From: an uncultured Isosphaeraceae bacterium
GTDB taxonomy: Bacteria; Planctomycetota; Phycisphaerae; Phycisphaerales; SM1A02
NCBI GenBank assembly: GCA_964474235.1
Contig: CAYYRP010000010.1
Coordinates: 4,934-68,933, forward strand
Length of the DNA: 64,000 nt
Direction: 5' to 3'
This document shows, in pieces, positions 4,519 to 35,556 of this stretch (the stretch's first letter is position 1; each line of letters starts with the position of its first letter). The translations under genes and the position numbers were made by a program. The notes beneath the pieces are model-generated. The model did no database searches, was not told the DNA's origin, and saw nothing but the letters and a program-made list of their open reading frames with translations.

Positions 4519-6147
4519 TTACCGAGGTTGACGCCCACCGCCACCACGGCTTCCAGGGCCTTGGCTGCCCCCTTGATCGCCACCTCTTCCGGGAGGTCCA
4601 CCGCCATTGCGGAAATGTTCTCGAATTGCTTCGCGTTCTGACTCGCTAATTTCACCATCGCCATTTTTATCAAACTGCTGCATAAATGCTTCACGGTCCC
4701 CATCAAAACCACCTCGGCGATTTCCACGGTCACCCCGATCACCACGCCCACGATCTTCGCGGACTTCACGTTTCTTCAAACCACCAAGTTCTTCGATTTG
4801 TTCTTCGGTGAGAAGAAGTCGGAGTTGTTGCAAATAATTTTCTTCTACAGTTTCACGATTTTCTTCAGCTTTACGAATTGGGCTTTCTGGACGATCCGAT
4901 TGTCCACCCGACATTCTCGATCTAAACCTGATCATTCGCTCAAGTTCTTCTTGAGATTCCCAACGTTTTGTCTCAGAAAGGATTTGCTCATTTGCATATT
5001 CCAATTCCGTCAACAACGCGTCGTACAACTCAACTACTGAGATCAAAATTTCAGGATCGATCTCTTCGAGTTCCATAGCACCAAGATATGCTCGCTCAAC
5101 TCGCGTTGTTCTAAAAATTCTGGGATACGCTCGTTCACGTGCAAGATGCGTAAATGCAGACCCTTCTTCAGAAGGCAACGCCATTGCAATTTGCATTACT
5201 GCATCATCATTGATTTGACGTACTGTTTCAGCAAGCCTCGCTTGCTCCTTCATAAGTCCATCGCTCGCATTGTCCGTTGATCTAAAAGATGCCATCAAGG
5301 CACCTTGATTTTCTACGAGATGGTCATCTCGCGCTTGCAGAGCAGAAGTAACATGCACATCCCATTCGTTAATTGCAGGGAGCAAAGCGGAAAGAGTTTC
5401 GTCATCGTAATCTTGTTGTTCTACAAGACCCATCACATCAAGAGTTTCACCGCTCAGTCTACCCTGAGGCAATAATCGATCACGAATCAAGATCCTCTTC
5501 AGTGGCGGCCACAAAAGTAACTGCTCTTCATTCAGAACAGTAACGAGGTCAGTCTCAAATTCAATTCGCATTTGCTTTTTTATACGCAGTTGGTCAGTGA
5601 CGTACAGCGAGAGTTCTTCCATTGCAGTTTGTCGTTCAGGGGATTCCCACTGCGCGGCGCGGGCTTCATTCATCTGCTGCCGAATTTCTTCCATTTCAGC
5701 ATTCAACCGCTCTTGCAATTCTTGCATTCCATCTTCGTCTTGAAGTTGGCGAGCGGAGTCCATCTTTTCTCGAATTTCTCTCATGCGATCGCGAAGCTGT
5801 TGCGATTGTTGACGGGCGGGATCATCCTCACCCCCACGCATGTTGGAAAAAGCCCCTCGCATTCCTTCTTCACTTGCAGTTGAAGCTTCTCTGAAGGATT
5901 CATCATAATCTCGAAGAATTTGTTCAACGATGACAGTTTGTTCTTCGTCAAGATTGAGCGTTTCTTGAAATCGTCTCAAATCACGCAGCATGTAATCGGG
6001 AGATGTGCCACCAGCAGTGATTCTTGACATCATTCCGCCACCTCTTCCTCCACGACCTCCACCCGGTTGAGCGTAAAGTGCTGTGGTGCAAGAAATTATG
6101 GCAATTGAAATAATGAATGTTTTCAGCGGTGATTGTATAAAACGCAT
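4519..6147 (-). CDS. periplasmic coiled, charge-rich protein with LTxxQ-like motifs, a C-terminal EF-hand and Gly/Arg-rich ends
   Basis: The start is moved to the ATG at 6147 (MRFIQSPLKTFIISIAIISCTTALYAQ, a signal peptide), which is preceded by AAGGAG 7 nt upstream. Motifs seen: LNLDEEQ, LNEEQ, LTEEQIEEL, the EF-hand loop DKNGDGEISESE, and GGRGGRGGG / GGGGRQPR tails. Confidence 0.5.
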   Translation of the reverse strand: MRFIQSPLKTFIISIAIISCTTALYAQPGGGRGGRGGGMMSRITAGGTSPDYMLRDLRRFQETLNLDEEQTVIVEQILRDYDESFREASTASEEGMRGAFSNMRGGEDDPARQQSQQLRDRMREIREKMDSARQLQDEDGMQELQERLNAEMEEIRQQMNEARAAQWESPERQTAMEELSLYVTDQLRIKKQMRIEFETDLVTVLNEEQLLLWPPLKRILIRDRLLPQGRLSGETLDVMGLVEQQDYDDETLSALLPAINEWDVHVTSALQARDDHLVENQGALMASFRSTDNASDGLMKEQARLAETVRQINDDAVMQIAMALPSEEGSAFTHLARERAYPRIFRTTRVERAYLGAMELEEIDPEILISVVELYDALLTELEYANEQILSETKRWESQEELERMIRFRSRMSGGQSDRPESPIRKAEENRETVEENYLQQLRLLLTEEQIEELGGLKKREVREDRGRGDRGDRGNRRGGFDGDREAFMQQFDKNGDGEISESEREAIREHFRNGGGPPGRGGDQGGSQGPGSRGGGGRQPR

Positions 6148-6244
6148 ACGTTGCTCCTTTTTTATGTACGCACCCAATATGTAGGGCAGAAGTGTTTAAC
6201 GCATAGTGACATGAAATATATCAATTTTTTTACTTTTTATTCGT

Positions 6245-6627: not shown

Positions 6628-7839
6628 TTAATGCATATACCGTGTTACTGCAACATACAAAATACGCTCAACCATTGCATTAAATTCGTCGTAACTCCCA
6701 TCGGCAAGGATACGATCAAGGAAACGTTTTTCTTCAATCATGCTCTGAATTCCAAACAAACGTTCTCGAAGAAATAATTGCACTTGGGGATCCCAAATTG
6801 ACGCAGTTTGTGGCTCATTCATTTCAACAACAGTGAACCAATACATCGACGAACCAATTTGTATTGGACCAACGACTTCACTTTCTTCTAAGCCAACAAT
6901 GTGCGACTTAATTGAATCTGCAACATCAATACCCTCCAGCCCGGTCGCATCAACTTCAAATGAATCCCACACTCCATCGTTTTCCATTCCTACACTTGTT
7001 GCAACTGTTGCAAAAGAATCACCTCGAGCAAATGAGGACGTGACTACTTCAATATCTTCTTCGCTTGACACATGAATCATTCCAAGTGTAATTTTTCCGG
7101 CAACATTAAGATTCCCTTTGTTCTTCTCCCAATCACGCTTCACATCACGCCATGTCACTTGAATGTGCGGAGAAACTTTTTCACGCAGCAACTGTTCAAT
7201 CAACACCTGCTGCTGCTTATAATCCAAATACTCATCAACAGTCTGCCCTTCTTCATCAAGCAACTGGCGAGTCACCGCACTTTGACTACCTCCCTCAGAT
7301 GATGCCATATCTTCCCGAACTCTTTGCAAATATGCAAACAATCCTTGTTTCTCTTCAACAGTCATTCCCGATTTTGCCTCTGATAACAATAATTCACTCT
7401 TCACAACGGCTTGCATTTGAGAGGCAATGAGTTGCTTCGCTCCATTTTTAAATGCGGTAGTATCGTGTTGGATTTCCTCAGAAAAAATAAGGAGTTGATC
7501 CGCTATTGGCTCAAGAATTTCGTTTGCAAAAATTGGCCGACCATTCACCTGACCAACCAACGATTCAACAACTACAGGCGTCCCCGCTCTCGTTGGCATC
7601 AATACTGATTCTTCAGCAGCAAATGCAAGTTGGTCGTGTTCTATCTCTGCAACTTCTTCAACGACCGCTTCTTCAATAAACAGATCATCTGCTGGCGATT
7701 CAACTTCCCCCGCAACACCAACAAAATCAGCTGGTGTGATCAAACGCCTTGTCTCTTGAACAACTTCTAACTGCCTTGTGCAACCAAGAGAAAAGGTACA
7801 CACGATAAGTATTGCAATCCATAGCTTCATGGGTATCAT
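6628..7839 (-). CDS. SurA/PrsA-like periplasmic chaperone lipoprotein with a degenerate parvulin-like C-terminal domain
   Basis: The real start is taken as the ATG at 7839 (MIPMKLWIAILIVCTFSLGC, a lipobox). The longer ORF-track start at 8103 would overlap the well-supported DUF1844 gene. The C-terminal segment ITLGMIHVSS...GDSFATVATSVGMENDG...YWFTVVE is parvulin-like. Confidence 0.5.
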   Translation of the reverse strand: MIPMKLWIAILIVCTFSLGCTRQLEVVQETRRLITPADFVGVAGEVESPADDLFIEEAVVEEVAEIEHDQLAFAAEESVLMPTRAGTPVVVESLVGQVNGRPIFANEILEPIADQLLIFSEEIQHDTTAFKNGAKQLIASQMQAVVKSELLLSEAKSGMTVEEKQGLFAYLQRVREDMASSEGGSQSAVTRQLLDEEGQTVDEYLDYKQQQVLIEQLLREKVSPHIQVTWRDVKRDWEKNKGNLNVAGKITLGMIHVSSEEDIEVVTSSFARGDSFATVATSVGMENDGVWDSFEVDATGLEGIDVADSIKSHIVGLEESEVVGPIQIGSSMYWFTVVEMNEPQTASIWDPQVQLFLRERLFGIQSMIEEKRFLDRILADGSYDEFNAMVERILYVAVTRYMH

Positions 7840-7913
7840 TGTACCCTCGAATTTGTCTATAATGACAAAATTATGCCTTTTGGCAATACAGATCACAAAT
7901 TTGGAGAGACACA

Positions 7914-8375
7914 ATGACCGAATCCCAAGATACCCCAGACGCAGCACCGAAACTCGAAATCGATTCTGATTGGAAAGCAGAAGCCCAAGCTGAAAAAGAG
8001 AAGCTTGCCCAAGCCGAACAAAAAGTAGAAGAACGAGCTGAAGCAAGAAAAACGCCAGATGCAGACTTTCGAGGTTTACTCGGAGCCCTTGCCTCACAAG
8101 CACTTATGGGCCTCGGCATGCACCAAGACCCCAGCGGCAAAGGTGTCATGGTCGATCTTGAAGGCTCAAAATTCGTCATTGATCTGATCGGTGTCGTCGA
8201 AGAAAAAACCAAGGGCAACCTCTCCGAAGAAGAAGAAACTGAACTGAAACAACTGTACAGTGAATTGCAAAATAGATTTGTACAAATTGCGCAACTTGTT
8301 GCTGCTCAAGGACAGGGCGAAGGTGGTCCCCAAGCATCCCCCGCTGTTCCGGGGATCATCGACCCAACGGCGTAA
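7914..8375 (+). CDS. DUF1844 domain protein
   Basis: DFRGLLGALASQALMGLGMHQDP...IDLIGVVEEKTKGNLSEEEETELKQLYSELQNRF matches my recollection of the DUF1844 signature (..KTKGNL..EE..). GGAGAG lies upstream of the ATG. Confidence 0.75.
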   Translation: MTESQDTPDAAPKLEIDSDWKAEAQAEKEKLAQAEQKVEERAEARKTPDADFRGLLGALASQALMGLGMHQDPSGKGVMVDLEGSKFVIDLIGVVEEKTKGNLSEEEETELKQLYSELQNRFVQIAQLVAAQGQGEGGPQASPAVPGIIDPTA

Positions 8376-9632
8376 CTACAACCACAAGCACGCAAGCCGC
8401 ACCGTGATGATCAACATCGCGGCGATTTGCAATAGAAACAAGACTCTCGGCAATTGCTTCCACCAAATGATCGGTAACAAAAATGCCCACACTATCAGAA
8501 AACGATCAAAGACAAATCCCTGCGTGCATGCATACAAGAGCCAACCTAGCATGAGCGTGTAAAAAGAAATATGCGTCACTGTTTCTTTACGGGAAGTTTG
8601 CTGCATTCCAAGAAGACCAGCCAGCCCGATTCCAGCAAGAACAGCGAGCAAGATAGTCTGAAATTTTGTATCACTTGTTAGCATCTTCACTGCTGTACCA
8701 ACGATCCCCTGAAACCGCTGCGTAGGGTTGTCATAATCAATTGTAGACGGGACAAATAAATCTGGAGTTGCAAACAACACCAGAAGTACACCAACAATTG
8801 CAGCGCCAAAAAGCCACCTGCGATTCGTTTGTTTCTTCCATGCATACACTGCAAATATCCCGACGAACGGAGCGAGCGCGGCAGCTAGATATGAAAGACT
8901 TTCAAGTCTAAAACCAAGCCCATGCAAGTTTTGATACTTTGGGCTCACCAAACCATCCCACCGTATCCACAGCGGAATCCTCGACAATCCCGCAAGTGCG
9001 CCTGCTACCCACCACGGCCAACTTCTCACACCGTCGCGTAAAAGAGCAACAATACAAATTGCACCCACAAGTGCAACGACATGGATACGGCTATGGAGCG
9101 CAATCGCAACAAGAAGCCCAAACAAAATTGGTGAGCACAAATTTCGATGATCTCTCGCATGCAAGTAGACCGCGACGATGAGTAGTTCAATGAGAATAAA
9201 TGAAATTTCTCCCATCACAATCTCGCTGAACACCAACGCATAAGGGAATAGTAACCAGCCGATTGCAACTGCTACATGCCCACCTCTTCGGACACCGCAT
9301 ACAGAAGCGATGTAGGCGAGCACAGCCATACATCCGATACTGCTCGACACACTAACCATACGAAGTGCATTGAGTGATCCACCAAAAAGTTCGCCCAAAA
9401 AAGCATAGGGCCAAATCATCGCTGGCCCTTTTGTTTCTTCAAAATCAATTGCTCTTTGAACGCTCCACCCTTGCTCAATTAAGTCATTGATCGGGACGGT
9501 TATATATTGTTCATCAAATACAAAATCGGATTGCAAAATGCTCGACCCAAACCGAACACAGAGTAGAACAAATGCAACAAACAGAACCGCCCCGACCATC
9601 CACCGCCAATCATGTTTTGTTGAACTATACAT
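8376..9632 (-). CDS. polytopic membrane protein, GT-C fold (ArnT/PMT-like) glycosyltransferase candidate
   Basis: Many predicted TM helices. A DE motif lies in the first extracytoplasmic loop (FVFDEQYITVP), as in GT-C enzymes. The start is uncertain (9632 or 9599). It is convergent with and abuts the DUF1844 stop with a 0-nt gap. Confidence 0.4.
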   Translation of the reverse strand: MYSSTKHDWRWMVGAVLFVAFVLLCVRFGSSILQSDFVFDEQYITVPINDLIEQGWSVQRAIDFEETKGPAMIWPYAFLGELFGGSLNALRMVSVSSSIGCMAVLAYIASVCGVRRGGHVAVAIGWLLFPYALVFSEIVMGEISFILIELLIVAVYLHARDHRNLCSPILFGLLVAIALHSRIHVVALVGAICIVALLRDGVRSWPWWVAGALAGLSRIPLWIRWDGLVSPKYQNLHGLGFRLESLSYLAAALAPFVGIFAVYAWKKQTNRRWLFGAAIVGVLLVLFATPDLFVPSTIDYDNPTQRFQGIVGTAVKMLTSDTKFQTILLAVLAGIGLAGLLGMQQTSRKETVTHISFYTLMLGWLLYACTQGFVFDRFLIVWAFLLPIIWWKQLPRVLFLLQIAAMLIITVRLACLWL

Positions 9633-10485
9633 TTCTTTGACTAAGGATATTGATATACGAATCTGATGGACAACGACGTAACACTTCTTCTGCCGTTGCA
9701 GGTTCAACATCACCAGTTACATCGTCAACAATTGTAAAACCAAAACCAAGTGAACTCAGCCAATCTAAAAGTGAAGCCGCGTCAGCACCTGCACCTTTTA
9801 ACTGCGCTGGTGACAATTCCCAAATTACTTTGATTGATGTATTATTTTGCAACAAGCGTTCCATTCCGTGGAATGCTGCAGACTCTGCGCCCTGCACATC
9901 CATCTTGATCAAATCAACTTGATCGTCGCTGGCGAAAAATTCATCAAGTTTCACACAATTAACTGTGACGCCTTTGCGACTTGCGCTGTGATATATTTGA
10001 TGGTCGCCAGAATTAAAAGTTGACGGGTGCAACTGCACATTTCCTGCAACATGAGAAACAGCAGCGTTGATAAGTTCAAGTTGCAAGTCATTTGCCTCTG
10101 CATTGCGAGACAACATTGCAAAATTTGCCGGATGTGGCTCAAAGGCTACAACACGACCACTGTTCCCAACCCATTTCGCTGCAGGCAAAGCAAAGAGTCC
10201 GACATGCGCGCCGACATCAACGAAGGTCATGCCTTTTTTTAATATCGATTGCATGATGTGTGTTGTGACTGGCTCGTACTCCCCCGTAGATTCCGCCTCA
10301 AGCGTTACGCCAAAGTCTCCACTTGGCAATTCAAACTGGAGTCCACAACGTTCAAGCGTACCTTTTTGCTTGATTTTCAATATTGCAACTGCCATAAAAC
10401 GCAGCGGTGGAAAATGTTCTAGAAGGGGACGAATGAATGGGGCGAGCCGTCTTCGTAAGTTTGAAAATGTACTACTTTTTTGCAT
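9625..10485 (-). CDS. FkbM family SAM-dependent methyltransferase
   Basis: MTFVDVGAHVGLFALPAAKWVGNSGRVVAFEPHPANFAMLSRN is a typical FkbM core. The start at 10485 (MQKSSTF) has AGGAG upstream and avoids overlap with hemW. Confidence 0.75.
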   Translation of the reverse strand: MQKSSTFSNLRRRLAPFIRPLLEHFPPLRFMAVAILKIKQKGTLERCGLQFELPSGDFGVTLEAESTGEYEPVTTHIMQSILKKGMTFVDVGAHVGLFALPAAKWVGNSGRVVAFEPHPANFAMLSRNAEANDLQLELINAAVSHVAGNVQLHPSTFNSGDHQIYHSASRKGVTVNCVKLDEFFASDDQVDLIKMDVQGAESAAFHGMERLLQNNTSIKVIWELSPAQLKGAGADAASLLDWLSSLGFGFTIVDDVTGDVEPATAEEVLRRCPSDSYINILSQRNV

Positions 10486-13478: not shown

Positions 13479-13499
13479 AAACAACCCGCGGGGTTGTTT
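13479..13499. repeat. REP hairpin copy, acting as a bidirectional terminator between purA and uppS
   Basis: The sequence aaacaacccgcggggttgttt is present. On the minus strand it reads CAT TAA ACAACCCCGCGGGTTGTTTTTTTAT, so the uppS stop codon sits in the stem and a T-run follows. Confidence 0.85.
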
Positions 13500-14184
13500 A
13501 ATGAATTTTACCAAAGGTTCGTTTCCGGCTTGCGTACTCGGCAATTGCTACATCAAGCGACGCACCATCGAAGCCTGGCCAGCACTGCTCGGTTACGTAT
13601 ATCTCGCTGTATGCAATTTGCCAAAGCAAAAAATTTGAAATACGCATTTCCCCTGCTGTTCGAATGAGCAAATCGGGGTCTGGAACACCCGAAGTAAACA
13701 GACGTTTCTCGAGGTTTTCCTCTGTCACTTCAACAGCATCTTGTACAAGGCGCTCAACCGCGTGAAGCAATTCGTTTCGTCCTGAATAATCGAGAGCAAG
13801 ACCGAGGGTAAGACGATTACAATTTGAAGTCAATGCAATTGCTTCATCTAATGCTTGCATGACTTCTGGGGTGAAACGATCGCGCCGTCCATAATGGCGT
13901 AGAGAAACACCCTTCTCAATTAACTCTGGAACTTCAGAAACTAACTTTTGGACAAGCAATGCCATCAACGCTTCTATTTCTTCTTGTGGTCGTCCCCAGT
14001 TCTCAGTAGAAAAAGAATAGAGCGTCAGATACGCAACACCAAGTTCTCCGCATCGCTCAACAATTTTCTTGACAGAAAGTGCGCCCGCTTCGTGGCCTGT
14101 ACTACGAGGAAGTCCTTTCGCCTCTGCCCAGCGGCCATTGCCGTCCATAATGATTGCAATGTGTTTTGGGAGAGATACTGCCAT
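13498..14184 (-). CDS. uppS: undecaprenyl diphosphate synthase (cis-prenyltransferase)
   Basis: Contains HIAIIMDGNGRWA, the TLYSFSTENW motif and RTAGEMRISNFLLWQ. Confidence 0.95.
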   Translation of the reverse strand: MAVSLPKHIAIIMDGNGRWAEAKGLPRSTGHEAGALSVKKIVERCGELGVAYLTLYSFSTENWGRPQEEIEALMALLVQKLVSEVPELIEKGVSLRHYGRRDRFTPEVMQALDEAIALTSNCNRLTLGLALDYSGRNELLHAVERLVQDAVEVTEENLEKRLFTSGVPDPDLLIRTAGEMRISNFLLWQIAYSEIYVTEQCWPGFDGASLDVAIAEYASRKRTFGKIH

Positions 14185-14201
14185 TCATCGAATGATACAA
14201 G

Positions 14202-14232
14202 AAAGGCGTAGAAGGAGAACTTCTACGCCTTT
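14202..14232 (-). terminator. perfect 13-bp hairpin downstream of the Cys-repeat gene (no clear T-run)
   Basis: The hairpin is aaaggcgtagaag-gagaa-cttctacgccttt. It lies between the stop at 14258 and the uppS start at 14184. Confidence 0.4.
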
Positions 14233-14257
14233 CTCAAAGAACGAATCTATCTTTACA

Positions 14258-15502
14258 TTAGAAGCATGGACCCCAAGCAGCGATGACAATCAAAATATCA
14301 TCAACGTTGACAATACCGTCACCGTTTACATCGCCATCACATCCAGCATGACACTCGATCATTTCACAGTGCGTGTTTGCATGGAATGAACCCGAGACTG
14401 AAAGACAGTCATCTTCCCAAAGCATCAAACATCCACCATTGATACAACACGCGCCTTCAACAGGTTCACCGCCACATGCAACATCTTCGCAGAGTGCTCC
14501 CGCACCTTGCCAATCGCCGCCTTCATTAAAGCAGTGCATTTCAGTGATCATGATGCATCCATTGTCGATGCAACATGCGCCATCTTCTGGCTGCCCGCAA
14601 ATTGAAGGATCGCAATGTGAGCCAACGCCGAAGAATTCGCCACCAACTTTGTTACACATCATTTCAGTGACTTCTTCGCAGTAACCTTCTACGCAGCAAG
14701 CGCCTGTATCGTTTATTGTGCATTCAATTGCATCGCACCCAGTAGGAAACCACATGCCACCTTCGCTGATGCAGTGTTCTTCCGTAAAATCAAAGCACAT
14801 ATCATCTATGCAGCAAGCACCAATTTGGCCGCCAGAACATGGCATGTCTGCACAACTACCACCAAACCATACACCATTATTCATGTAACATTCTTCCATT
14901 CCAGTCATAACACAATCATTGTCAAAACAACATGCGCCAACTGTAATGTCGTCGCATTCCACCGATTCACAATCCATGCCATGGAAGATGCCGCCTTCTT
15001 GCGTACAATGATCCATAGTTAACATGTGGCAATCAGCCCCGATGCAGCATGCACCTTCTCCAGAACCACCACCACACGAGTCAGCGTTACACATAGTATT
15101 CTCGCCTTGCCAATCGCCGCCCTCTAAGATACAGCCTTCTTCTGGGATGTTGTCATAGCATTGCCCTTCAAAACAGCAAGCACCTGCTGCGGGACCAGAA
15201 CAAGTTGTAGTTTCACACGCAGTGTCTTGACCAAGCCAATCGCCGCCCTGAGCTACACAAAGATCTTCTGCCATGACAGCACATTGCCCATTAAAACAAC
15301 ATGCGCCGAAATTATTTCCGCCACATGAGTCAACACATGTTGTACCTGCACCTTGCCAGTCACCCCCGCCTTGAACACAAACATTTTCGGGCATCACTTG
15401 ACATCCTTGTTCAAAACAACAAGCGCCCATTCCATCTTGAGCAGTTGCGAACCCTGTACAACACAGAATCACTGCTGCCATCATCATCTTTACTGCACGC
15501 AT
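14258..15502 (-). CDS. secreted protein with 9 six-Cys GACC repeats and a C-terminal dockerin/EF-hand-like segment
   Basis: Signal peptide MRAVKMMMAAVILCCTGFATAQ. Nine units begin GACCF/I/V (for example GACCFEQGCQVMPENVCVQGGGDWQGAGTTCVDSC). The tail is CDGDVNGDGIVNVDDILIVIAAWGPCF. A strong SD (AAGGAG) precedes the ATG. Confidence 0.8.
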   Translation of the reverse strand: MRAVKMMMAAVILCCTGFATAQDGMGACCFEQGCQVMPENVCVQGGGDWQGAGTTCVDSCGGNNFGACCFNGQCAVMAEDLCVAQGGDWLGQDTACETTTCSGPAAGACCFEGQCYDNIPEEGCILEGGDWQGENTMCNADSCGGGSGEGACCIGADCHMLTMDHCTQEGGIFHGMDCESVECDDITVGACCFDNDCVMTGMEECYMNNGVWFGGSCADMPCSGGQIGACCIDDMCFDFTEEHCISEGGMWFPTGCDAIECTINDTGACCVEGYCEEVTEMMCNKVGGEFFGVGSHCDPSICGQPEDGACCIDNGCIMITEMHCFNEGGDWQGAGALCEDVACGGEPVEGACCINGGCLMLWEDDCLSVSGSFHANTHCEMIECHAGCDGDVNGDGIVNVDDILIVIAAWGPCF

Positions 15503-15623
15503 ATCAATTCTCCTTTTGTGATATTTTAGAACGTAATTTTAAATTTAAATTTAACTAATCATATCTCTAGCTATACGTACACCCTACCCTGCAGTTGCTC
15601 AAATCGCAAACAAAATCGCCCTA

Positions 15624-15677
15624 AAATAAAAAAACTCGCCCCACCAGTCATTTTGCGGATGAGAGTGGCGGGACGAG
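15624..15677 (-). terminator. rho-independent terminator after the giant gene
   Basis: The minus strand reads CTCGTCCCGCC...GGTGGGGCGAG (11 bp including 2 G-T pairs) followed by TTTTTTTATTTT. Confidence 0.55.
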
Positions 15678-15705
15678 CATAAAAACGTACTTTAATGTCG
15701 ATGAT

Positions 15706-18700
15706 CTAGTTCGGCAATTTCTCGAAATACAAGATCTTTGGCTTGTCTTGCGGGGTGTTTACCTCGCTACGATCGACGAGCATGACATAGCGTGAGTCAT
15801 CAATAATGTAGTCGAGATCGGTTGCATCCCAAACACCTGTTGCTGAATTTTTCCTGAACGTACGAATACGCATGTGCACAGTAAACACATCACTTGTAGT
15901 TGTGATCAAATTCGAAATACCCGCTTGTAACATATTTAGTTCTTCAGAGTCGCCACTTACACGATCACCAATTAAAGAATCTTCTTCGTAAATATCTACA
16001 GGAGCACCTTTGTCATCAACAACATTTCGTGAATTCACATCAGTGCTGATCGGCGCACCAACACCATCTGCAATCCAATTAGAATTAGAAGTGCCAAATT
16101 CAGAAAATGGTTCTAAGCCAGCATAATCAATACGCCATGCTGCAGGGCCTCGGATCGCTTGATGATTAGAACTGCTCCAAGGTTCAACAACGAACTCAGG
16201 TTTATACTCCGTTTCCATGGTGTCAAACGGTGATGCAGAGAGCATACCAATTTGCGATGGAGATGCAAACCCACGTGTTTCTTCAAGCATTGAGGCATTA
16301 CCGAGCCCTAAGCGCCACGAACGATCTGAATAATCAGGAGCACCAACAATGCCGGTCCCTACAATTTGATCTGCAAAACCGTTGCCATTTTCTCGCCATT
16401 GAAGGATAGATTCAGGAATAAGTGACCGCGGGTTCACATCTCCTGAAACGGCACCCCCACTATCGGATTGTTGCGTAGCGTGGACAATTTTGTTCATGTG
16501 TGGGAGCGCCCGCATCGCTTCAACTGTCGCTGTGTTAATGTTGATCATTCCCGGCGTAGATTTTCCTGTAAACCCATTCGCGTTATAAAAAGAGAACCAC
16601 TGCGTATCTGATGGTTGCAAATCTCCACCTAACCGACCTGGACCATCGCACACGAACGTATCAAGCACTCTGCCTGCAACTGACAAACGCGGCCATGGGT
16701 ACTCAGCAACACGATACGAACTGATCGAATCATCCCAACCTAGTTGCGTGCCACCTAGCATCATCGGCAATGTCATTTGTTGCGTGTCATTTGGATCAAG
16801 TGTATTCTCAAAATCCTCAACGCCTTGATTAAATCGGAGTCTATTCACGCGTGCATCAACATAGAATTCTGTGCGAGTTTCGTCAATATCTGCAGGACCA
16901 TCGAGATCATCTAAGGAAGAGAATCTAGCAATCCCCGTCAATGGTGCCCACCAATCCCAATCAGGATTTCCGTCACCATCTTCATCATCAGCAAGAAGAT
17001 CACCATCTTTATCAATAATTTTTGGGAACATAAATTCGCTAAATGTGACTTGTGTACCAGTGCTATGAATATCGCCTCCGTCGAGAGGGCCTCGGTTCAA
17101 ACTAAAAGTAACATCCGGTAGTGCTTGGTCAAAAAGTATATCGCTTTCAATCATGTGCCCAAAGAGCCAGCAGTTGAGCACTTCGCCAACCTGCTCAAAG
17201 TCGTCATCTTTTTGCAACATCTGCATCGAGAATGGAAATGCCATATCTCGCTCGGCTTCGCCCTCAACACCATCTCCGACTACGAAACCATCTTCATCAA
17301 GATCAGTATCTTCAAACAATGCTTCGTTTTCACCAATGCCGTCCGCAGCATCTGCATCAAAAGGATCAAATTCAAAATCTAGGAACGCAGGGTTAGCAGC
17401 AAAAGTTCCGTCCTCAGCATATTCGTGAGGTGCCCAAGTGCCATCAGTTGGGTCGTGAATCGCTTCCTTTCGAGATTGTCCATACCATCCCTTATCTGGG
17501 AATAGAGCATTCTCTTGATAGTTCATATCGAAGTACGTTGGTTTTCGATTCCTCAAGCCGCCAGCAATAAGCCCATCATTGATAATCTCGTTGTCTCCAC
17601 GGGGAGACCATGTTTCAACTGTAAACCATGGATCAGGATCATCGGCGACCATATCATCGTCGCCACTGTCTGGATTACCATCGCCGTTCATATCATCAGG
17701 ATCTTCGGGTGTTGCTAACTCCCATTTCCATTCAAACACGGAAGTGTGATCTATATTTGGATCTGTTTCGGCTGTATTCATAACAGGTAGCAGATCCAGT
17801 GATCGTATGTGATCACGAGCTGAGAACACAAATCGTGGATTACGTTCCCAGCTGTCATACGTACCATTGTGCCAACCGTACATGTCGGGTACATCTACGC
17901 CCCACGCTCTTGTAGCGCGATCCCACTGCACAAAGAGAACATCATGTGGATTATCAGGATCAGTTACAAGGATTTCAGTATCGATGAATCCATCATCTGC
18001 ATCATCGTCTTTGTCGACTTTATCCCACTCATCTTCCATATCATCAACGACACGTTTAGTAAAACTATTGAACTCATCCGGTCTGTCTAACCGGTCAATT
18101 AAAACCAGTTGGTCAACATCTGTCTTGTAAAGCGCGACTGCATGTTGCGCTTCATCAGAAAGTGCGTCATACCATTCACGCTGCGTACTCCAATCCCCTT
18201 CAGGAACTTCTGCAATGATAGAACCTGCCGCGCCTGCGGGATGATCAGCAACATCGAGGTCTAAGAAATCCAACCAATCAATTCTAAATTGCGGATTCGC
18301 AATTGGGGCAAATTCTTCTTTTGGAATTGTAATAGTTTCTTCATCTGTCATTGCATACAAGATTAACGTCGCAGGATTTTCTGGCGTTGACGGGTATAAA
18401 AATTGTTGGTTTGTTGAAACCAAGAAACTTAAATCTAGTCTCTGTCCAAAAAACTCAACTGTGTAATCTGAAAGGTCAATGACGCGATCAAACGGATTGG
18501 CGAGTTGCACAACGGCGACAGTTTCTTGCGGACATTCATCTGTGTCAGGAGTGACAAGATAAAACGGCTCACACGTTGTAGAAGTACACACAGTACCGTC
18601 GCCTTGATACGTACCATTGATCAAGCCACACGCGTCACCATCAACAACCATCAAACAACTTCCACTAGAGACGCAACACGAACCAAGTCCACAAGGGGAA

Positions 18701-21700
18701 GGGTCGCAATTCGTTCCATCACCCCAATATTGACCTTGCAAATCATTACAAGAAGTTTCATCAACTTCTTTGCATTGTCCTGTTGGCAAGCAACATGCCC
18801 CCACCTCGATAACACATTGGTTATCGCAATCGCTGCACAATGTGTCATCGCCCCAGTACTGAATGCCACCACTTGCAACACAAAATAGTTCAGTAACTTC
18901 CATACAACTAGAACTATCTAAACAACACGCTCCTACAATGCAATTGGTTGCATCACATAACGAATCATCGCCTTGATAGAATCCTGCAAGTAATAAACAG
19001 GATGGCTCTGTCACTTCGACACACTCCCCTATACCCAAACAGCATGCTCCATCAGGACGACCGGGGACACTCGCTCCGCCAACGCAACAGCAATGCCCAT
19101 CAACACACAGAGTTCCGTCTCCACTGTATTCACCGCCAAGTTCACTGCATGTAAATGGTGATACTTCAGTACATTCAAATGTAATAATGCAACATGCACC
19201 TTTTACACATGGACTTGTATCACACATCACCCCGTCACCTTGATACAGACCGCCAAGATCAACGCACGATGTTTGCGGAACATTCACACACGGTTCATCC
19301 GGAATACAACAAGCGCCTTCTATATTTGGAGTACATGGATCTCCTGCGCAAGTTGTAATGCCGTCCCAAACGCCGAGCATCAAGTCACATTGATCCTGTG
19401 TGATGTCTGCACATTCATCTGTGTTGAAGCAACATCGGCCAAGAATAAGAGGCGCTGGTGCGCACGATGCATTGTCACAATCAACGCCGTCCCCTTCATA
19501 CGAACTGAGGAGATCGTCGCACATAGCAAGTGTCATTTGTTCACACGTTCCATCAAGTAAGCAACACGCACCGACTGTACAAGGGGCAGCGCCACACGTG
19601 GTTCCATCGCCTTGATACGTCCCTGCTTTATCAATACATGCTTCTTCAGTGATTGTGACACAATAATTATCTTGAAGACAACAAGCACTTTCAATAACAT
19701 CAAGACATGGATCGGTACTGCAGAGTGTTCCATCACCTTGATAACTCCCAGCGAGATTGTCACACAAGTTTAATGGTGTCACTTCACACTCACCTGTTGG
19801 CAAACAACACGCGCCCGTATCGCAAATTCCTTCACAGCAACTCGTCGAATCGCCTTGGTATGTTCCTGCAATGAGTGCACATACAGATTGAGGAATTGTC
19901 ACACAACCTTCTAACCCCAGACAGCATGCGCCTTCAAAAACTGCAGGGCAATTTGAGTCAAAGCAAGTTGTATCTGAACCAATAAATGCTCCGCCAAGGT
20001 CCAGACAAGTAGAACTTCTTACAGTTTCGCAGAGTTGCAGATCGCTTATGCAGCAAGCTCCAACTTCTGATGAATCAGGAACATCTCCGCAGGTTCCCTC
20101 TACACAAGAACCACCATCGATTGAACCACCCAAGCTTAAACAAGTGCTAGATAAAATATTTTCACAGTTCCCATCGGGCAAACAACACGCTTGCGTGCTA
20201 CAAGAACCATCTTCACAGCTTGAGCTGATACCACCAAAGATGCCTGCTAAGTCATCGCATATATCTTCTGTAACTTCGTAACAAGCGCTTGCTAGGCAAC
20301 AGGCGCCCTCAAATACATCACAACATGGTTCACCCGAACATTCAGAACCATAGCCTTGGAACGAACCAAGCAAATCAGTTTCACAAATGTGCCGTGTAAT
20401 TTCTTCACAGAACAAAGCCTCATCATCACCAGCAGTAAAACAGCATGCGCCACCGCACTCGATTGCACCACACAAGACGCCATCAAAGTACGAGCCACCT
20501 ATATCATGGCATTCTGAGGAAGCAGTTTGCATATTATCTCCATTTGAATCCACAGTTGATGTCATGTTGATACAACTACCACTCCCAAGGCAACATGCGC
20601 CTGTTATGAGGCATGGAGCCTCTGCACAGAATGTTCCAGAATTGTATTCGCCTTCAAACACAGATTCGCAGTATTCTTCAGTCCACACATCCATACAATC
20701 ACCATTTGGTAAGCAGCAAGATCCAGTTGTACAAGCGATGCTTGCACAGTCCGTTGAGGCACCTAAATAATCACCGCCGAGTGTTACGCACTCTGCTTCA
20801 GAAAATACATCGATACAACTTCCACTTCCAAGGCAACAGGCGCCTGTCGAATTACACACCTCCTCTGTGCAATCTAGCCCGTCACCCCTATACACGCCAC
20901 CATACAACATACATGTTTCTTCGATCAGGGTTACACATGTGCTCGCCGGCAAACAACATGCACCAACCGTAGGATCTGTACATAAACCAACCGAACACGA
21001 AACGCCTTCCGTCCACTGTGTATCTTCCACAGGAACACCAGAAAGTTTTGTAAGTTGCTCACAGTGAACGAGAGAAATTTCAAGACATTCGCCAGTTGCA
21101 ATCAAACAACATGATCCAATGACTGCTGGCGATCCAGTACAGTCTGCACATGTAGTTGCCTCACCTTGATAAACACCTGAGAGCATTGTACAGAAACCTT
21201 CTGTCACTACTTCGCAACGGAATTCGCCAATACAACACGCTCCAATAGCACATGGTGCAGAATCGCAAAGTTCACCGTCCCCTTTGTACTCGCCACCCAT
21301 GTCATAACAGACCAGTGCGTCCACTTCAATACAAAAGCCAATTGGCAAATCAAGCGGATCCGACCCAGTTGGGATCTCAGGGATATGCGTAATACAACAT
21401 GCACCAGATCCACAAGGATCAGTTGAACACAAAACAGACAGCCCCGCAAAAGTACCGCCAACTGTTGCGCATTGCGCAGCCGTTAAATCTTCACATATTC
21501 CCGCAGTTGGCTGACCAGTTGGCGAATTATTTGCAATACAGCAGCCACCCAATGCAGGTGTTACCGCTCCGCCACAGGGGTCGGTGTCACAAAATATATC
21601 GTCACCTGAATATGTTCCACCAAGGGCAGTACAGACTACAAATGTGATATCAACACAATCAGTCCCCACACAACACCCTCCGCGAGGAGTACAAGTAACA

Positions 21701-24700
21701 GTATCGCATGTTGTCCCAGCACCTTGGAACGTACCGTATAGTTGTTCCTCGCACGTGCGTATCGAAACGTCTTCACATCCACCCTTTGGCAAACAACAGG
21801 CGCCAAAACATTCGATATCAGAGCAATTTTGACCCGCAAAATATGTACCGTCAAAGTTCAAGCAAGAATCTTCAGAGATATATACACAAGAGCCAGAATT
21901 AAGCGATGTACCAGCTGCAAGATCATCGTCTGTATCAAGACAACAAGCTCCGAATGCTCCGCCACTCCCGCCGCATGGATCTTCGGCACAAGTTACACCC
22001 AACTGATAGGTGCCACTGAGCTCAAAACAAGTGCTAATAGTTACATTTGTACACTGCCCACTGTCTAGGCAACACGCACCTCCACACGGATCATCAATAC
22101 AAAATCTTCCCAATTGAAACACGCCGCCAAAATCTAGACACGTGGTTTCGCCTGCTTCTCGTATATCAATACAACTTCCACTTAGCAAACAACATGCCCC
22201 TTCTGGAGTACACGGAAGAGAAACACAATCAGAATCTATACCTTTGTATTCACCGCCCATATCTGTACAACTCTCTTCTGAAAGTAATTCACAGCCGAGT
22301 AAATCATCTATATCAAGATCAAAACAGCATGCACCCCCACAAGAAATTTCACAACAGAGTTCACCATCATGATATTCACCACCAAGTGTAATGCAATGTT
22401 CTCTGGCGATTTCAATGCAATTTCCTGCCGGTAGACAACATGCCCAACATGAAACAAGTTCGGGGCAAGTCACATCGACACACAAAGAATCTGCATGGAA
22501 TTCTAAACCGCCAAGGAGCGAGAGGCATGTTTCTTCGGAAACTTCTTCGCAGATGGTTTCAGAATCACAACCCGATAAGCAACATGCGCCAAGTGGTTCT
22601 GGGACTTTTGCTTCATGGACGTGCGCAATGAATGTTTCAAGTATAAATGGCTGCGCTTCGAGCCCGAGCATTTGGACTGAACCACCTGCGTCGTTTGAAA
22701 AATTTGTTCCGATTATTGGTAGAGCATTCTGATCATGATCACGCTGCCTGCCAAGGACAGGAGGAGTCACTGCAGAACTCAAAGGCAAACTAGACCTTGC
22801 AAAGGACCCGTTTGGATTAAATGGCAACAGGGAATGATCTCGCCATGCGTCATCTGTATCTTTGTATGCCATCATATTAGAGGCGAGTCCTGCAGCCATT
22901 AACCTCGTTTGCTGATAGGGATCTTGTAAATCACCATTACTTTGGATGGACGTACCATCCATTTCTCCAGCAACTGTACGACCATATCCATTCCAAACTC
23001 CAGTTTCAGAACCGTCGAACATACTCGTAGTTCCTGATTCTTGAGAATCTGTCATTGCAAGCAATAGTGCCAAAGGGGCTCTTTCAGAAAATGTTAATGT
23101 GCCATCGGCGTAAGATTCCCACCATGGATCTCCAAATGCAAAAGTGCCAAAATATTCTCGCAAATCCACTTTGGTTGTTGCTTGTTCTCTCCACTTGTTT
23201 GCAACATCTAAGAATGCCTCTTGCTCTTGACCAGGAGGCGAATCAGATGCAGCTTGCACGGCTTCGTATACAACCTTGAGCGGGAACATTTGCCCCCAAA
23301 CATTTGTTGGTGCTGCGTAGGAATAGTATGCACTTATGTCTAAGGGATCACCATCATCACCACTTGGCAAATCACCCTCTGAGAGATCTGGGTCAAAGCG
23401 ATTGGCAAACCGATCTTCCCATCGAAGCCATGGTGGAAGCAGATCATTTCTTACACCACTAAACAAAGTCATCTTGCGTCGATTATCGAAAACAAGTTGC
23501 GAATTTGTGAGTTGATCACGCAGCTCACTTGCTTCGTGAGCTTTGGTGTAATCACTGCGAATGAATTGCTGACCTACATCGCCATTGGCATTCACTCTGT
23601 TAATACTATTTTCGAATCGGCTTCCAATAAATTGGTAGTTATTCCCCTCGTTAATTCTGAGTTCTATTTCATCAGAGAGGTTGTAGGGTCTAAATCCACG
23701 TCTCGCGTTGAGTGGATTTCTGCCTACGAGTTGCCAATACCAGCGGCGACCATACAGAGAAGTAATGTTATCCCATGGATCATTCAAATCAGCAAATGGA
23801 TTCGCAGTTGTATCGTAAAAAATATCATTCGAAGTCGAGCCACTGACCTGCGCTCCAACTTCATCAAGGATTGATGCATACTCTTGGTCTTGCCAACGGT
23901 CCGTATCCCAAGCCACGACAACTCTTGGGTCATTGGGGTCATCAAGTTCACCGTATGTGATCCAATCTGGTGCGTTAGCAGGTGTATCAAGAAAGCCTAC
24001 TTTCCAATTTGAATCTGTTTCGCTGTAGACATCGTTTTGTGCAACAAGAGCGATGTCGGCAGGTGTATGACCTCTAGTCCCTTCCCCGCCAAGGGCTACC
24101 ATCGGCTGACTCGTACTTGGCATCCCCTCGCCTCTTTGTGGCATTGATGCAGTAATGCCTGAGCTAGAAACATCAACACGATGAAACCGTGACCCAACGT
24201 TAAAATTTACTTTTCCAGAGTTATCAGTAATAGAAATACCAACAATTTGACGAATGTCCGAGCCTGCTTCATACGGTGACAAGTGCCAAATAGAATCTGT
24301 AAAGCCGTCGCCATCAGAGTCTGTCAGCGTTCGTTCTACCATCCACCGTGGAGTCCCATCTTCGAAGGCATCCATCGGCCGTTCACCCTGTTCATGCTGG
24401 ACCCCGTCATTATCTAGATCACTTAAATTCAAGAAGTTGATTGGTAGTAGTTCACTATTAGATTGTGCATTTACCCAGCCATCTAAACTGTACCAATTGT
24501 ACCAACGAGTCCAAAAGTCACCATTGTTATCTAATACATTGCCATCGCTAATTGGCAAATCAAAACCGAGCCCGACTTCGGCAGGCAGTTGCCCCCCAAC
24601 AGTTGGGCGCCACGAGGGCCACTGCTCAACTGGTACATCGAGATCTGTCATCACGCCATCGCCGCCAATATCTGAAATATTGCGTACAGGTCTCCATGCA

Positions 24701-25317
24701 TTCGTGCTTTGTGAGAGGTTCGTCAAATGACGCCAATGCGTAAAGGTGTCAGGTGTACCATCAACGTCATTCCACTCATCTGGGAGATCCTCAGTGGCAA
24801 CATCCACTCGTAAATCTGCTCGCTGTGGCTCCGTGTCACGCAGCCAACGTGCATCACCAAATGATGGACCACCAAGAGGATTATCAGGTCCGACGTTATC
24901 ATCAAAGAAACCACTGCCATTATCATCAACCCTATTGTAATCGTCTGGTGGATTCGTCCAAGGAATGACTGCGTATGGAGCAAAGTTATATGGATTATTT
25001 GGATCGTGCGTCCAACGAGTCTCACCAATATCTGGCAAACGTCTTCGATTATTTGCACTCCCTTGCGGAGCGCCACCTGTAGGAATTTCAGGTTTGACGA
25101 AAAGCGCAAGGGCAATATCATCTGCGATTGCTTGCCCAATAAACCTTGCACTGTTACTCCTCGCAGCCGCGATACGTTGTGCTTTTGCAGTCACACGCGT
25201 ACCTTGCGTGCGTGTCAAGAACGCTGTTGTGACGAGTACGAGAAGAACCAAAACACCAACAACTAAAATCAAAGCGTTTGCACGGCGAAGCGGATTGTGT
25301 ATTTGTTTCATGTTCAT
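15706..25317 (-). CDS. giant (3203 aa) GspK/PilX-like minor pseudopilin carrying an internal array of about 31 six-Cys repeats and multiple DxDxDG Ca-binding-like loops
   Basis: The start is set to the ATG at 25317 (MNMKQIHNPLRRANALILVVGVLVLLVLVTTAFL), which overlaps the upstream stop as TAATG. The N-terminal hydrophobic helix lacks the G-FTLIE/E5 motif, as in GspK. A C-terminal PGMININTATVEAMRALP motif (about 16528..16548) resembles the T2SSK NxNTA helix-hairpin-helix signature. The gene sits in the position after the J-like gene. Confidence 0.7.
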   Translation of the reverse strand: MNMKQIHNPLRRANALILVVGVLVLLVLVTTAFLTRTQGTRVTAKAQRIAAARSNSARFIGQAIADDIALALFVKPEIPTGGAPQGSANNRRRLPDIGETRWTHDPNNPYNFAPYAVIPWTNPPDDYNRVDDNGSGFFDDNVGPDNPLGGPSFGDARWLRDTEPQRADLRVDVATEDLPDEWNDVDGTPDTFTHWRHLTNLSQSTNAWRPVRNISDIGGDGVMTDLDVPVEQWPSWRPTVGGQLPAEVGLGFDLPISDGNVLDNNGDFWTRWYNWYSLDGWVNAQSNSELLPINFLNLSDLDNDGVQHEQGERPMDAFEDGTPRWMVERTLTDSDGDGFTDSIWHLSPYEAGSDIRQIVGISITDNSGKVNFNVGSRFHRVDVSSSGITASMPQRGEGMPSTSQPMVALGGEGTRGHTPADIALVAQNDVYSETDSNWKVGFLDTPANAPDWITYGELDDPNDPRVVVAWDTDRWQDQEYASILDEVGAQVSGSTSNDIFYDTTANPFADLNDPWDNITSLYGRRWYWQLVGRNPLNARRGFRPYNLSDEIELRINEGNNYQFIGSRFENSINRVNANGDVGQQFIRSDYTKAHEASELRDQLTNSQLVFDNRRKMTLFSGVRNDLLPPWLRWEDRFANRFDPDLSEGDLPSGDDGDPLDISAYYSYAAPTNVWGQMFPLKVVYEAVQAASDSPPGQEQEAFLDVANKWREQATTKVDLREYFGTFAFGDPWWESYADGTLTFSERAPLALLLAMTDSQESGTTSMFDGSETGVWNGYGRTVAGEMDGTSIQSNGDLQDPYQQTRLMAAGLASNMMAYKDTDDAWRDHSLLPFNPNGSFARSSLPLSSAVTPPVLGRQRDHDQNALPIIGTNFSNDAGGSVQMLGLEAQPFILETFIAHVHEAKVPEPLGACCLSGCDSETICEEVSEETCLSLLGGLEFHADSLCVDVTCPELVSCWACCLPAGNCIEIAREHCITLGGEYHDGELCCEISCGGACCFDLDIDDLLGCELLSEESCTDMGGEYKGIDSDCVSLPCTPEGACCLLSGSCIDIREAGETTCLDFGGVFQLGRFCIDDPCGGACCLDSGQCTNVTISTCFELSGTYQLGVTCAEDPCGGSGGAFGACCLDTDDDLAAGTSLNSGSCVYISEDSCLNFDGTYFAGQNCSDIECFGACCLPKGGCEDVSIRTCEEQLYGTFQGAGTTCDTVTCTPRGGCCVGTDCVDITFVVCTALGGTYSGDDIFCDTDPCGGAVTPALGGCCIANNSPTGQPTAGICEDLTAAQCATVGGTFAGLSVLCSTDPCGSGACCITHIPEIPTGSDPLDLPIGFCIEVDALVCYDMGGEYKGDGELCDSAPCAIGACCIGEFRCEVVTEGFCTMLSGVYQGEATTCADCTGSPAVIGSCCLIATGECLEISLVHCEQLTKLSGVPVEDTQWTEGVSCSVGLCTDPTVGACCLPASTCVTLIEETCMLYGGVYRGDGLDCTEEVCNSTGACCLGSGSCIDVFSEAECVTLGGDYLGASTDCASIACTTGSCCLPNGDCMDVWTEEYCESVFEGEYNSGTFCAEAPCLITGACCLGSGSCINMTSTVDSNGDNMQTASSECHDIGGSYFDGVLCGAIECGGACCFTAGDDEALFCEEITRHICETDLLGSFQGYGSECSGEPCCDVFEGACCLASACYEVTEDICDDLAGIFGGISSSCEDGSCSTQACCLPDGNCENILSSTCLSLGGSIDGGSCVEGTCGDVPDSSEVGACCISDLQLCETVRSSTCLDLGGAFIGSDTTCFDSNCPAVFEGACCLGLEGCVTIPQSVCALIAGTYQGDSTSCCEGICDTGACCLPTGECEVTPLNLCDNLAGSYQGDGTLCSTDPCLDVIESACCLQDNYCVTITEEACIDKAGTYQGDGTTCGAAPCTVGACCLLDGTCEQMTLAMCDDLLSSYEGDGVDCDNASCAPAPLILGRCCFNTDECADITQDQCDLMLGVWDGITTCAGDPCTPNIEGACCIPDEPCVNVPQTSCVDLGGLYQGDGVMCDTSPCVKGACCIITFECTEVSPFTCSELGGEYSGDGTLCVDGHCCCVGGASVPGRPDGACCLGIGECVEVTEPSCLLLAGFYQGDDSLCDATNCIVGACCLDSSSCMEVTELFCVASGGIQYWGDDTLCSDCDNQCVIEVGACCLPTGQCKEVDETSCNDLQGQYWGDGTNCDPSPCGLGSCCVSSGSCLMVVDGDACGLINGTYQGDGTVCTSTTCEPFYLVTPDTDECPQETVAVVQLANPFDRVIDLSDYTVEFFGQRLDLSFLVSTNQQFLYPSTPENPATLILYAMTDEETITIPKEEFAPIANPQFRIDWLDFLDLDVADHPAGAAGSIIAEVPEGDWSTQREWYDALSDEAQHAVALYKTDVDQLVLIDRLDRPDEFNSFTKRVVDDMEDEWDKVDKDDDADDGFIDTEILVTDPDNPHDVLFVQWDRATRAWGVDVPDMYGWHNGTYDSWERNPRFVFSARDHIRSLDLLPVMNTAETDPNIDHTSVFEWKWELATPEDPDDMNGDGNPDSGDDDMVADDPDPWFTVETWSPRGDNEIINDGLIAGGLRNRKPTYFDMNYQENALFPDKGWYGQSRKEAIHDPTDGTWAPHEYAEDGTFAANPAFLDFEFDPFDADAADGIGENEALFEDTDLDEDGFVVGDGVEGEAERDMAFPFSMQMLQKDDDFEQVGEVLNCWLFGHMIESDILFDQALPDVTFSLNRGPLDGGDIHSTGTQVTFSEFMFPKIIDKDGDLLADDEDGDGNPDWDWWAPLTGIARFSSLDDLDGPADIDETRTEFYVDARVNRLRFNQGVEDFENTLDPNDTQQMTLPMMLGGTQLGWDDSISSYRVAEYPWPRLSVAGRVLDTFVCDGPGRLGGDLQPSDTQWFSFYNANGFTGKSTPGMININTATVEAMRALPHMNKIVHATQQSDSGGAVSGDVNPRSLIPESILQWRENGNGFADQIVGTGIVGAPDYSDRSWRLGLGNASMLEETRGFASPSQIGMLSASPFDTMETEYKPEFVVEPWSSSNHQAIRGPAAWRIDYAGLEPFSEFGTSNSNWIADGVGAPISTDVNSRNVVDDKGAPVDIYEEDSLIGDRVSGDSEELNMLQAGISNLITTTSDVFTVHMRIRTFRKNSATGVWDATDLDYIIDDSRYVMLVDRSEVNTPQDKPKILYFEKLPN
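18571..22590 (-). repeat. coding tandem array of about 31 diverged units of about 43 aa (CC-x5-C-x7-C-x12-C-x5-C) inside the giant gene
   Basis: Counted by eye in the translation. Units start G-A-C-C-[LFIV], for example GACCLPTGECEVTPLNLCDNLAGSYQGDGTLCSTDPC. The first GACC codons are at 22590 and the last Cys codon is at 18571..18573. Confidence 0.85.
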
Positions 25318-34262: not shown

Positions 34263-34320
34263 TGTTTTCTTACTCCGTAGACACCCATTGCGTTCGGGTA
34301 CCTGCCACTACACTTTTATG

Positions 34321-34349: not shown

Positions 34350-34432
34350 CTGCAATAGGAGTGCTTTTTACATTTGCCACCTAGATTATTCACTTAACCT
34401 CTCGAAAAATCAAGTACAAAGTTGTCCTGTAC

Positions 34433-35536: not shown

Positions 35537-35556
35537 ATATGTAGGTTCCGTCCGTA

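Follow-up and report, generated by a model that had tools for sequence, protein, structure and literature searches.

We analysed a 64-kb stretch of DNA from an uncultured marine planctomycete (contig CAYYRP010000010.1, positions 4,934 to 68,933; hereafter the window), focusing on a gene for a 414-aa Cys-rich protein, called here the small gene, that lies between a giant gene encoding a GspK-like tip pseudopilin and uppS. An original prediction, made from the sequence alone, had described the product of the small gene as a secreted nine-repeat paralogue of the giant protein with a dockerin-like tail, and as a candidate partner or cargo of the neighbouring filament system. The features of the locus are as follows.

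14258..15502, (-) strand: coding sequence of the 414-aa secreted Cys-repeat protein (small gene), stop codon included; open reading frame (ORF) call, ratio of nonsynonymous to synonymous substitution rates (dN/dS), identical protein on nine metagenome contigs
15440..15502, (-) strand: predicted Sec-type signal peptide, residues 1-21; read from the sequence, with a putative signal peptidase I site ATA|QDG placed without a dedicated tool
14351..15427, (-) strand: nine tandem Cys6 modules, residues 26-384; profile, six invariant Cys per module
15323-15427, 15200-15307 and 15074-15184, (-) strand: Cys6 units 1-3
14954-15055, 14837-14938 and 14720-14821, (-) strand: Cys6 units 4-6
14597-14704, 14474-14581 and 14351-14455, (-) strand: Cys6 units 7-9
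14261..14341, (-) strand: C-terminal, single-segment dockerin-like (F-hand) putative Ca-binding loop and helix; Pfam Dockerin_1 and PDB profile match
15510..15515, (-) strand: AAGGAG ribosome-binding site, 7 nt upstream of the small-gene ATG
15627..15678, (-) strand: intrinsic terminator after the giant gene; 13+4 bp hairpin followed by U7, dG -26.9 kcal/mol, z -3.7
14199..14235, (-) strand: terminator-like hairpin after the small gene; 16 bp, dG -26.8, z -6.1
13498..14184, (-) strand: uppS (undecaprenyl-diphosphate synthase), PF01255, E=8.9e-78; downstream synteny anchor
15706..25359, (-) strand: giant GspK-like tip pseudopilin gene, 3217 aa, with ~32 Cys6 modules at roughly 18571..22590

The small gene and the layout of its product

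Both the ORF call and a repeat profile confirmed the predicted 414-aa ORF with a Sec signal peptide and nine repeats. The small gene is real and under strong purifying selection where it is retained, as dN/dS against four orthologues ranged from 0.06 to 0.11, including 0.086 at an unsaturated synonymous divergence (dS) of 0.40. The identical protein was placed on nine metagenome contigs by a contig index, yet a cluster-membership index reported it absent. The alternative that the ORF is not a real gene was ruled out by dN/dS and conservation.

The start codon is an ATG, and the AAGGAG ribosome-binding site was found as predicted in an AT-rich spacer (15503..15626, 124 nt) with a GC content of 31.5%, compared to 45.9% for the window. 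The hairpin between the giant gene and the small gene, first placed at 15624..15677, was recovered at 15627..15678. A further hairpin, missing from the original prediction, lies after the small gene, 15 nt upstream of the uppS start codon. Because a terminator hairpin stands on each side, the small gene looks like a monocistronic transcription unit of its own. Planctomycete promoters are poorly defined, and a sigma-70 promoter scan of the spacer gave no credible promoter, a result that is uninformative for a planctomycete. An Rfam scan of 14100..15800 returned only sub-threshold chance matches.

We also observed that the hairpin after the giant gene is near-invariant, including its loop (…TCGTCCCGCCAC[G/T]CTCATCCGCAAAATGACTGGTGGGGCGAGTTTTTT), although the flanking proteins share only 55-75% identity. 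Near-invariant copies occur in the relatives L001 (~5280-5330), L002 (~2640-2690) and L004 (~3040-3090), and recognisable ones in L003 (~5395-5445), L005 and L006; the stem changes in L003 look compensatory. This conservation exceeds the need of an ordinary terminator, and the hairpin has no Rfam match. Directly 5' of the uppS start, the motif CTTTCTTGTAT[G/C]ATT (14185..14215, (-) strand) is kept in the window, L001, L002 and L004. As uppS starts only ~15 nt past the small-gene terminator, there is hardly any space for a promoter or leader; uppS may be transcribed as a near-leaderless mRNA from a -10-like TATGAT, or by read-through.

The small protein begins with MRAVKMMMAAVILCCTGFATA|QDG, and the AxA|Q site is conserved in all four orthologues (L001, L008-L010). 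A prepilin N-methylation motif (G-F-x-x-x-E) was not found in it by N_methyl or IV_pilin_GFxxxE, whereas the upstream genes have these matches; the N-terminus of the protein is Sec-like, and it is not a pilin. The sorting signals PEP-CTERM, LPXTG, GlyGly-CTERM and the C-terminal domain of the type IX secretion system gave no match by Pfam or NCBIfam at E<=0.01. The protein has 58 Cys, two in the signal peptide, 54 in the repeats and two (Cys388 and Cys413) bracketing the tail, which leaves 56 in the mature form. Signal-peptide cleavage, export, the formation of 28 disulfides, Ca2+ binding and docking are all predictions drawn from these sequence features.

The window protein has all features of a Phycisphaerales family that we define here by a signal peptide, a Cys6 array, GACCINGGCLML and a half-dockerin. 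Members carry 5-13 Cys6 units after the signal peptide, an invariant last unit 'GACCINGGCLML'...C..V.G, and a tail of the form C-x-GD[VI][ND]GDG-x-V-x-V-x-D[IL]L-x5-WG-x-C that ends one residue short of the C-terminus. The last module and tail are near-invariant in 15 proteins, and the Cys6 units align one-to-one between orthologues of the small protein. Two types were distinguished: the type A proteins form a clade apart from type B (99% bootstrap), and type B proteins are 37-46% identical to the window protein. One copy was found in each of the 13 family-bearing genomes (GTDB species representatives), a count in which the incompleteness of metagenome-assembled genomes (MAGs) could mask second copies. 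By these sequence traits, the small protein counts as a member of a marine Phycisphaerales family with a single copy per genome.

The signal peptides of the family also bear on an alternative in which the protein is a membrane-anchored lipoprotein, cleaved by signal peptidase II at a conserved Cys of the h-region, and the tail is a Ca-stabilised structural cap, not a docking module. In all five type A proteins, a Cys-Thr pair precedes the AxA site by 6-7 residues, and a canonical LIGC lipobox is present in one type B member (L014). However, positions -3 to -1 are mostly unlike a lipobox (ILC, ICM, CCM), several type B signal peptides (L012, L016, L018) have no Cys at all, and the AxA|Q site is conserved. 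We consider a lipoprotein highly improbable.

The Cys6 module and the giant gene

The modules are ~35-40 aa each, and those of the small protein follow the pattern GACC-x4-C-x7-C-x11..13-C-x3..4-C. The spacing first proposed, CC-x4-C-x7-C-x12-C-x3-C, was right in its general pattern but too strict, as the last two intervals vary and the first repeat has x13; GGDWQG, described as a conserved element, occurs in only three of the nine repeats, plus one GGDWLG. A profile built from the nine units matched the small ORF at E=3e-137 and found 32 copies in the giant protein, in agreement with the claim that both carry the same domain type, while no further Cys6 carrier was found among the other ORFs of the 64 kb. 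All nine units of the small protein and the 32 of the giant conform to the more general pattern GACC-x4-5-C-x7-C-x3-GG-x3-G-x3-C-x3-4-C, with six invariant Cys, G-A before CC and a GG-x-aromatic centre.

An AlphaFold2 (AF2) model of the small protein, made from a 68-sequence alignment, had a mean predicted local distance difference test score (pLDDT) of 81 and a predicted template modelling score (pTM) of 0.38. Each unit was modelled as a beta-hairpin, a short helix and a strand at a pLDDT of 85-95, except for unit 5, which was poorly predicted. The low pTM beside confident units is expected for beads on a string, which is the arrangement modelled. A second model, of the last two modules and the tail (4-sequence alignment), reached a pLDDT of 42.8 and was unusable. 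When the full model was compared with the PDB by Foldseek, no match reached E<=0.001; the top one, ADAM17 at E=0.45, was treated as noise.

Pfam and NCBIfam gave no domain match at E<=0.01 for the repeat in either protein, the sole NCBIfam match in the giant being a negligible one to enoyl-CoA hydratase (E 0.0059), and the Cys6 module had no Pfam, NCBIfam, PDB-sequence or Foldseek match. Nevertheless, when 1.84 billion cluster representatives (50% identity clusters) were searched with a profile made from 30 repeats of the window, 6,951 clusters matched at E<=1e-3, 3,284 at <=1e-10 and 739 at <=1e-30. A word-indexed homologue search with the small protein returned 552 matches, from Phycisphaerae, Planctomycetota and Eisenbacteria MAGs; this search missed a 68%-identical orthologue (GCA_030748455.1) that was recovered by synteny, and negatives from it and from the cluster-membership index need care. 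Elsewhere the repeat is fused to a reprolysin-like protease, an L-type lectin, a beta-helix, PPC, dockerin and other extracellular domains. Since ~6,950 clusters carry it, the repeat is not private to the small protein and the giant; judged by these matches, Cys6 is a large, uncatalogued and promiscuous extracellular domain.

To place the two arrays relative to each other, we compared mean repeat identities. The units of the small protein shared 37.2% identity with those of the giant, 38.6% with repeats taken from unrelated proteins of other organisms, 42.0% with type B units and 42.1% with one another. Furthermore, CC and Cys3 are separated by x4 in the units of the small protein and by x5 in most units of the giant. 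These identities and spacings ruled out the small protein as a recent paralogue of the giant's repeats, and the label of paralogue finds no specific support. The same holds for the argument that a shared, otherwise unassigned repeat signals functional linkage, given a repeat present in 6,951 clusters and an identity to the giant at background level. We infer that the giant gene acquired the Cys6 module independently.

In the giant protein, the Cys6 array has been inserted at a single site, between 'QPFILETFIAHVHEAK' and 'TVAVVQLANPFD'. Most members of the GspK-like family are 1,400-1,600 aa long and have no Cys array, and array-less relatives include P0127, P0129, P0131, P0133-P0137, L026 and L027. 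Where present, the array differs in length, with 15-23 units detected in L008-L010 and 16 in L003; that of the window giant is colinear, unit by unit, with P0144, a 3219-aa homologue that is 75% identical. In P0140 (1551 aa, partial, from Planctomycetes MAG H8E86_09090), a ~350-aa non-repeat segment ('...WLNELHYDDEGEDFNEFIEIAI...') interrupts the array, and the insertion site appears to tolerate further domains. Nothing relevant turned up in a literature search that combined the Cys repeat with pseudopilins in Planctomycetes.

The single insertion site in a family otherwise devoid of the array, and the co-occurrence of array and small gene in one clade, are what one would expect if the adjacency were a leftover of domain shuffling, the small gene having seeded the giant's array or been carved from it with no present functional link. 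Against this stand the small-giant identity of 37.2%, not above the background of 38.6%, the systematic difference in CC-to-Cys3 spacing and the fact that closer relatives of the small gene sit at the type B locus, such that any transfer would be too old to see. We regard this origin as quite improbable.

The giant is the last gene of an operon in which it is preceded, in order, by genes for a GspE-like ATPase, a PilT-like ATPase, GspE/PilB, GspF and five pseudopilins. We noticed that three tandem ATPase genes of the T2SSE family head this operon (32457..37296, (-) strand). Their products are a GspE-like protein of 579 aa that contains an MshEN domain, a PilT-like protein of 367 aa, and a GspE/PilB of 601 aa whose N-terminus is of the MshEN/cyclic di-GMP (c-di-GMP)-binding kind. 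L026 and L027, both distant relatives, share this tandem arrangement. The pseudopilin operon showed no secretin gene.

Synteny, deletion and a second locus

The order giant, small gene, uppS and purA (the last reversed) was found in six lineages: the window (with identical contigs), L001, whose small protein is 68% identical, L008/L031, L009, L010 and L037. In L002, L003, L004, L005 and L006, uppS directly follows the terminator of the giant and the small gene is absent, L003 having kept a 16-module giant. In the distant operons L026 and L027, uppS and purA follow a giant without an array and there is no small gene.

Trees of purA+uppS, uppS and the C-terminal domain of the giant each showed two clades, with both states, presence and absence, in each. 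The uppS tree pairs L004, which has no small gene, with the window as its sister (100% bootstrap). L004 retains a scar in which ~57 nt (~19 codons) of the small-gene 3' coding end are followed by the terminator and the sequence leading up to uppS; over 192 nt, the scar shares 80% identity with window positions 14314..14124. The breakpoints in L002 differ from those in L004. Because of this scar, the different breakpoints and the absences in both clades, sequence comparison indicates that the small gene is ancestral at this site in the marine subclade with array-bearing giants and was deleted at least twice while the giant persisted. A gain in the window lineage was ruled out by the remnant of 3' coding end and terminator in L004. 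Thus, a lack of conservation beside the giant, which the original prediction had named as one sign against itself, applies only in part: the small gene was found there in six lineages and is lost from five that keep the giant, including the closest relative with its scar.

Type B members of the family are encoded at a different locus, between upp (uracil phosphoribosyltransferase) and a divergently oriented N6-methyltransferase gene. Up to 17 such loci were found (L007, L011-L018, L020, L021, L032-L036 and L038), and no giant, pseudopilin, GspE or GspF genes occurred in their flanks. With up to 17 type B loci against six lineages at the giant gene, the family was encountered roughly three times as often away from the filament operon as beside it.

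These observations bear on whether the small protein is an accessory of the filament system, which resembles type II secretion systems (T2SS) and type IV pili (T4P), acting as a soluble homotypic ligand of the giant's array, a pilus-bridging matrix component or an exported substrate. The order giant, small gene, uppS is kept in six lineages from two clades, the two proteins share a domain type of which they are the sole carriers in 64 kb, and both the array and the small gene are missing from distant operons. T2SS substrates are exported by Sec and then fold, with disulfides, in the periplasm, and the predicted route of the small protein suits this profile. Conversely, the small gene was deleted at least two times while the giant and its operon persisted, terminators flank it on both sides, and the sister subfamily occupies an unrelated locus whose surroundings lack pilus genes. 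The repeats of the small protein resemble those of the giant no more than they resemble generic ones, the domain occurs in thousands of unrelated secreted proteins, and the prepilin motif was not found in the small protein. We therefore consider a filament accessory unlikely. Because the family is widespread, usually elsewhere in the genome, and repeatedly deleted from this spot, its position beside the giant, an old but dispensable synteny, is weak evidence of functional partnership and does not point to an obligate part in the filament system.

The dockerin-like tail and likeness to known systems

The tail, CDGDVNGDGIVNVDDILIVIAAWGPCF, had been predicted to resemble a dockerin or EF-hand; it is indeed dockerin-like, but comprises one segment only and scores below the Pfam cut-off. 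It is laid out as C388-DGDVNGDGIVNVDDILIVIAAWGP-C413-F, and contains a Ca-loop of the form D-x-[DN]-x-[DN]-G-x-[VI]-x-x-x-D, DVNGDGIVNVDD, followed by the helical ILIVIAAWG, with an AF2 helix at residues 400-409. Pfam Dockerin_1 (PF00404) covers the tail over profile positions 2-22 of 57, a match that surfaced only at a relaxed E-value and scored 15.9 bits with the whole protein and 20.3 bits with the tail alone, under a gathering cut-off of 22.9. In profile searches against the PDB, dockerins were the sole sequence matches, via the tail (2y3n_B, E=3.7e-4), and this single tail aligned to either segment of 2y3n_B. PF00404 comprises two tandem F-hand segments of ~22 residues, of which the tail has one. 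Because the Dockerin_1 match spans only one segment, the tail is, from its sequence, a half-dockerin, that is, one of two F-hand segments. It is invariant in position and near-invariant in sequence across 15 family members.

Naturally truncated, single-repeat 'group-2' dockerins of Ruminococcus flavefaciens were shown by experiment to be functional cohesin binders, two per cohesin, and halves of classical dockerins can remain functional (PMC12270676). In Phycisphaerae, non-cellulosomal cohesin/dockerin assemblies have been proposed under the 'planctosome' hypothesis (PMC6461901).

Taken together, we favour a reading in which the product of the small gene stands alone, outside the cell or on its surface, as a stalk or binding array that is probably tethered through its half-dockerin, and in which adjacency to the giant is historical. 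Export by Sec and removal of the signal peptide would yield a disulfide-rich beads-on-a-string protein. The nine-module array would then most likely form a rigid extracellular stalk or a binding surface, and the half-dockerin bracketed by Cys388 and Cys413 would tether the protein in a Ca-dependent manner to a cohesin-like module or to another F-hand, which would belong to the cell surface or to different secreted proteins.

Several points weigh against this reading. Signal-peptide cleavage, disulfides and Ca binding are predicted from the sequence. Adjacency to the giant was kept in at least six lineages of both clades, with purA at 82-88% identity, and could reflect selection for linkage; moreover, the clade with the array-bearing giant is also the clade with the small gene at this site, L026 and L027 having neither. 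Copies masked by MAG incompleteness would affect the single-copy status of the family. Finally, no match to cohesin (PF00963) was found among the 37 of 53 window ORFs of >=150 aa that were scanned with Pfam (GspG-like, GspF and GspE being covered by NCBIfam only and purA by neither), nor was a second F-hand, a half-dockerin or a Cys6 partner for the small protein found elsewhere in the window, which leaves the proposed docking without a receptor in these 64 kb.

A more far-reaching idea is that the disulfide-locked half-dockerin tail and the Cys6 module constitute an extracellular assembly code used throughout Phycisphaerae, in which half-dockerins would pair in trans or bind two per receptor and the ~32-module array of the giant would serve as the scaffold or homotypic partner that takes up proteins like the small one, a pilus-borne 'planctosome'. 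We offer this as a long shot.

Elsewhere in the window, an ORF for an IS200-like Y1 transposase (44313..45062, (-) strand; PF01797, E=2.8e-12) lies amid housekeeping genes. Three consecutive ORFs of 445-552 aa (4519..6177, 6628..8103 and 8376..9713, all on the (-) strand) have no Pfam match; they adjoin a gene for an FkbM-type methyltransferase and one for a protein with F5/8 type C (discoidin) and GATase domains.

Two features deserve mention: a Cys6 extracellular family of ~7,000 clusters (50% identity), missing from the searched copies of Pfam and NCBIfam, and a conserved single-copy family of marine Phycisphaerales whose natural single-repeat dockerin, apparently bracketed by a disulfide, occurs outside cellulosomal bacteria. 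A secreted dockerin-bearing repeat protein is of a known kind, and neither feature would greatly surprise a specialist. Because the repeat is promiscuous and the neighbour dispensable, a shared repeat and adjacency are insufficient to infer a partner of the giant tip protein. If the half-dockerin binds a receptor, the recently described single-repeat dockerin mechanism would extend to planctomycetes.

Among known systems, the tail is most like type I dockerins (PF00404), especially those of R. flavefaciens group-2, with which it shares a C-terminal D-x-N-x-D-G-x-V-x-x-x-D loop and an amphipathic helix. It differs from type I dockerins by its single segment, its sub-cut-off score, its Cys...Cys bracket and its end one residue before the C-terminus. 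Furthermore, the host is a marine planctomycete and not a cellulolytic Firmicute, and the window yielded no cohesin match. Modular minor (pseudo)pilins and GspK-type tip proteins of T2SS and T4P are represented by the neighbouring giant, which carries the same Cys6 type; unlike them, the small protein has a predicted Sec signal peptide and no prepilin N-methylation motif. The 'planctosome' proteins (PMC6461901) are likewise secreted Phycisphaerae dockerin and repeat proteins, proposed to form complexes with reprolysin-like peptidases, and the Cys6 module of the small protein co-occurs with reprolysin-like domains in other proteins, as in that model. However, the planctosome is itself hypothetical and was conceived for a freshwater family with full dockerins, cohesins, and HYR (hyalin-repeat) and LTD (lamin-tail) domains, and it includes no Cys6 module.

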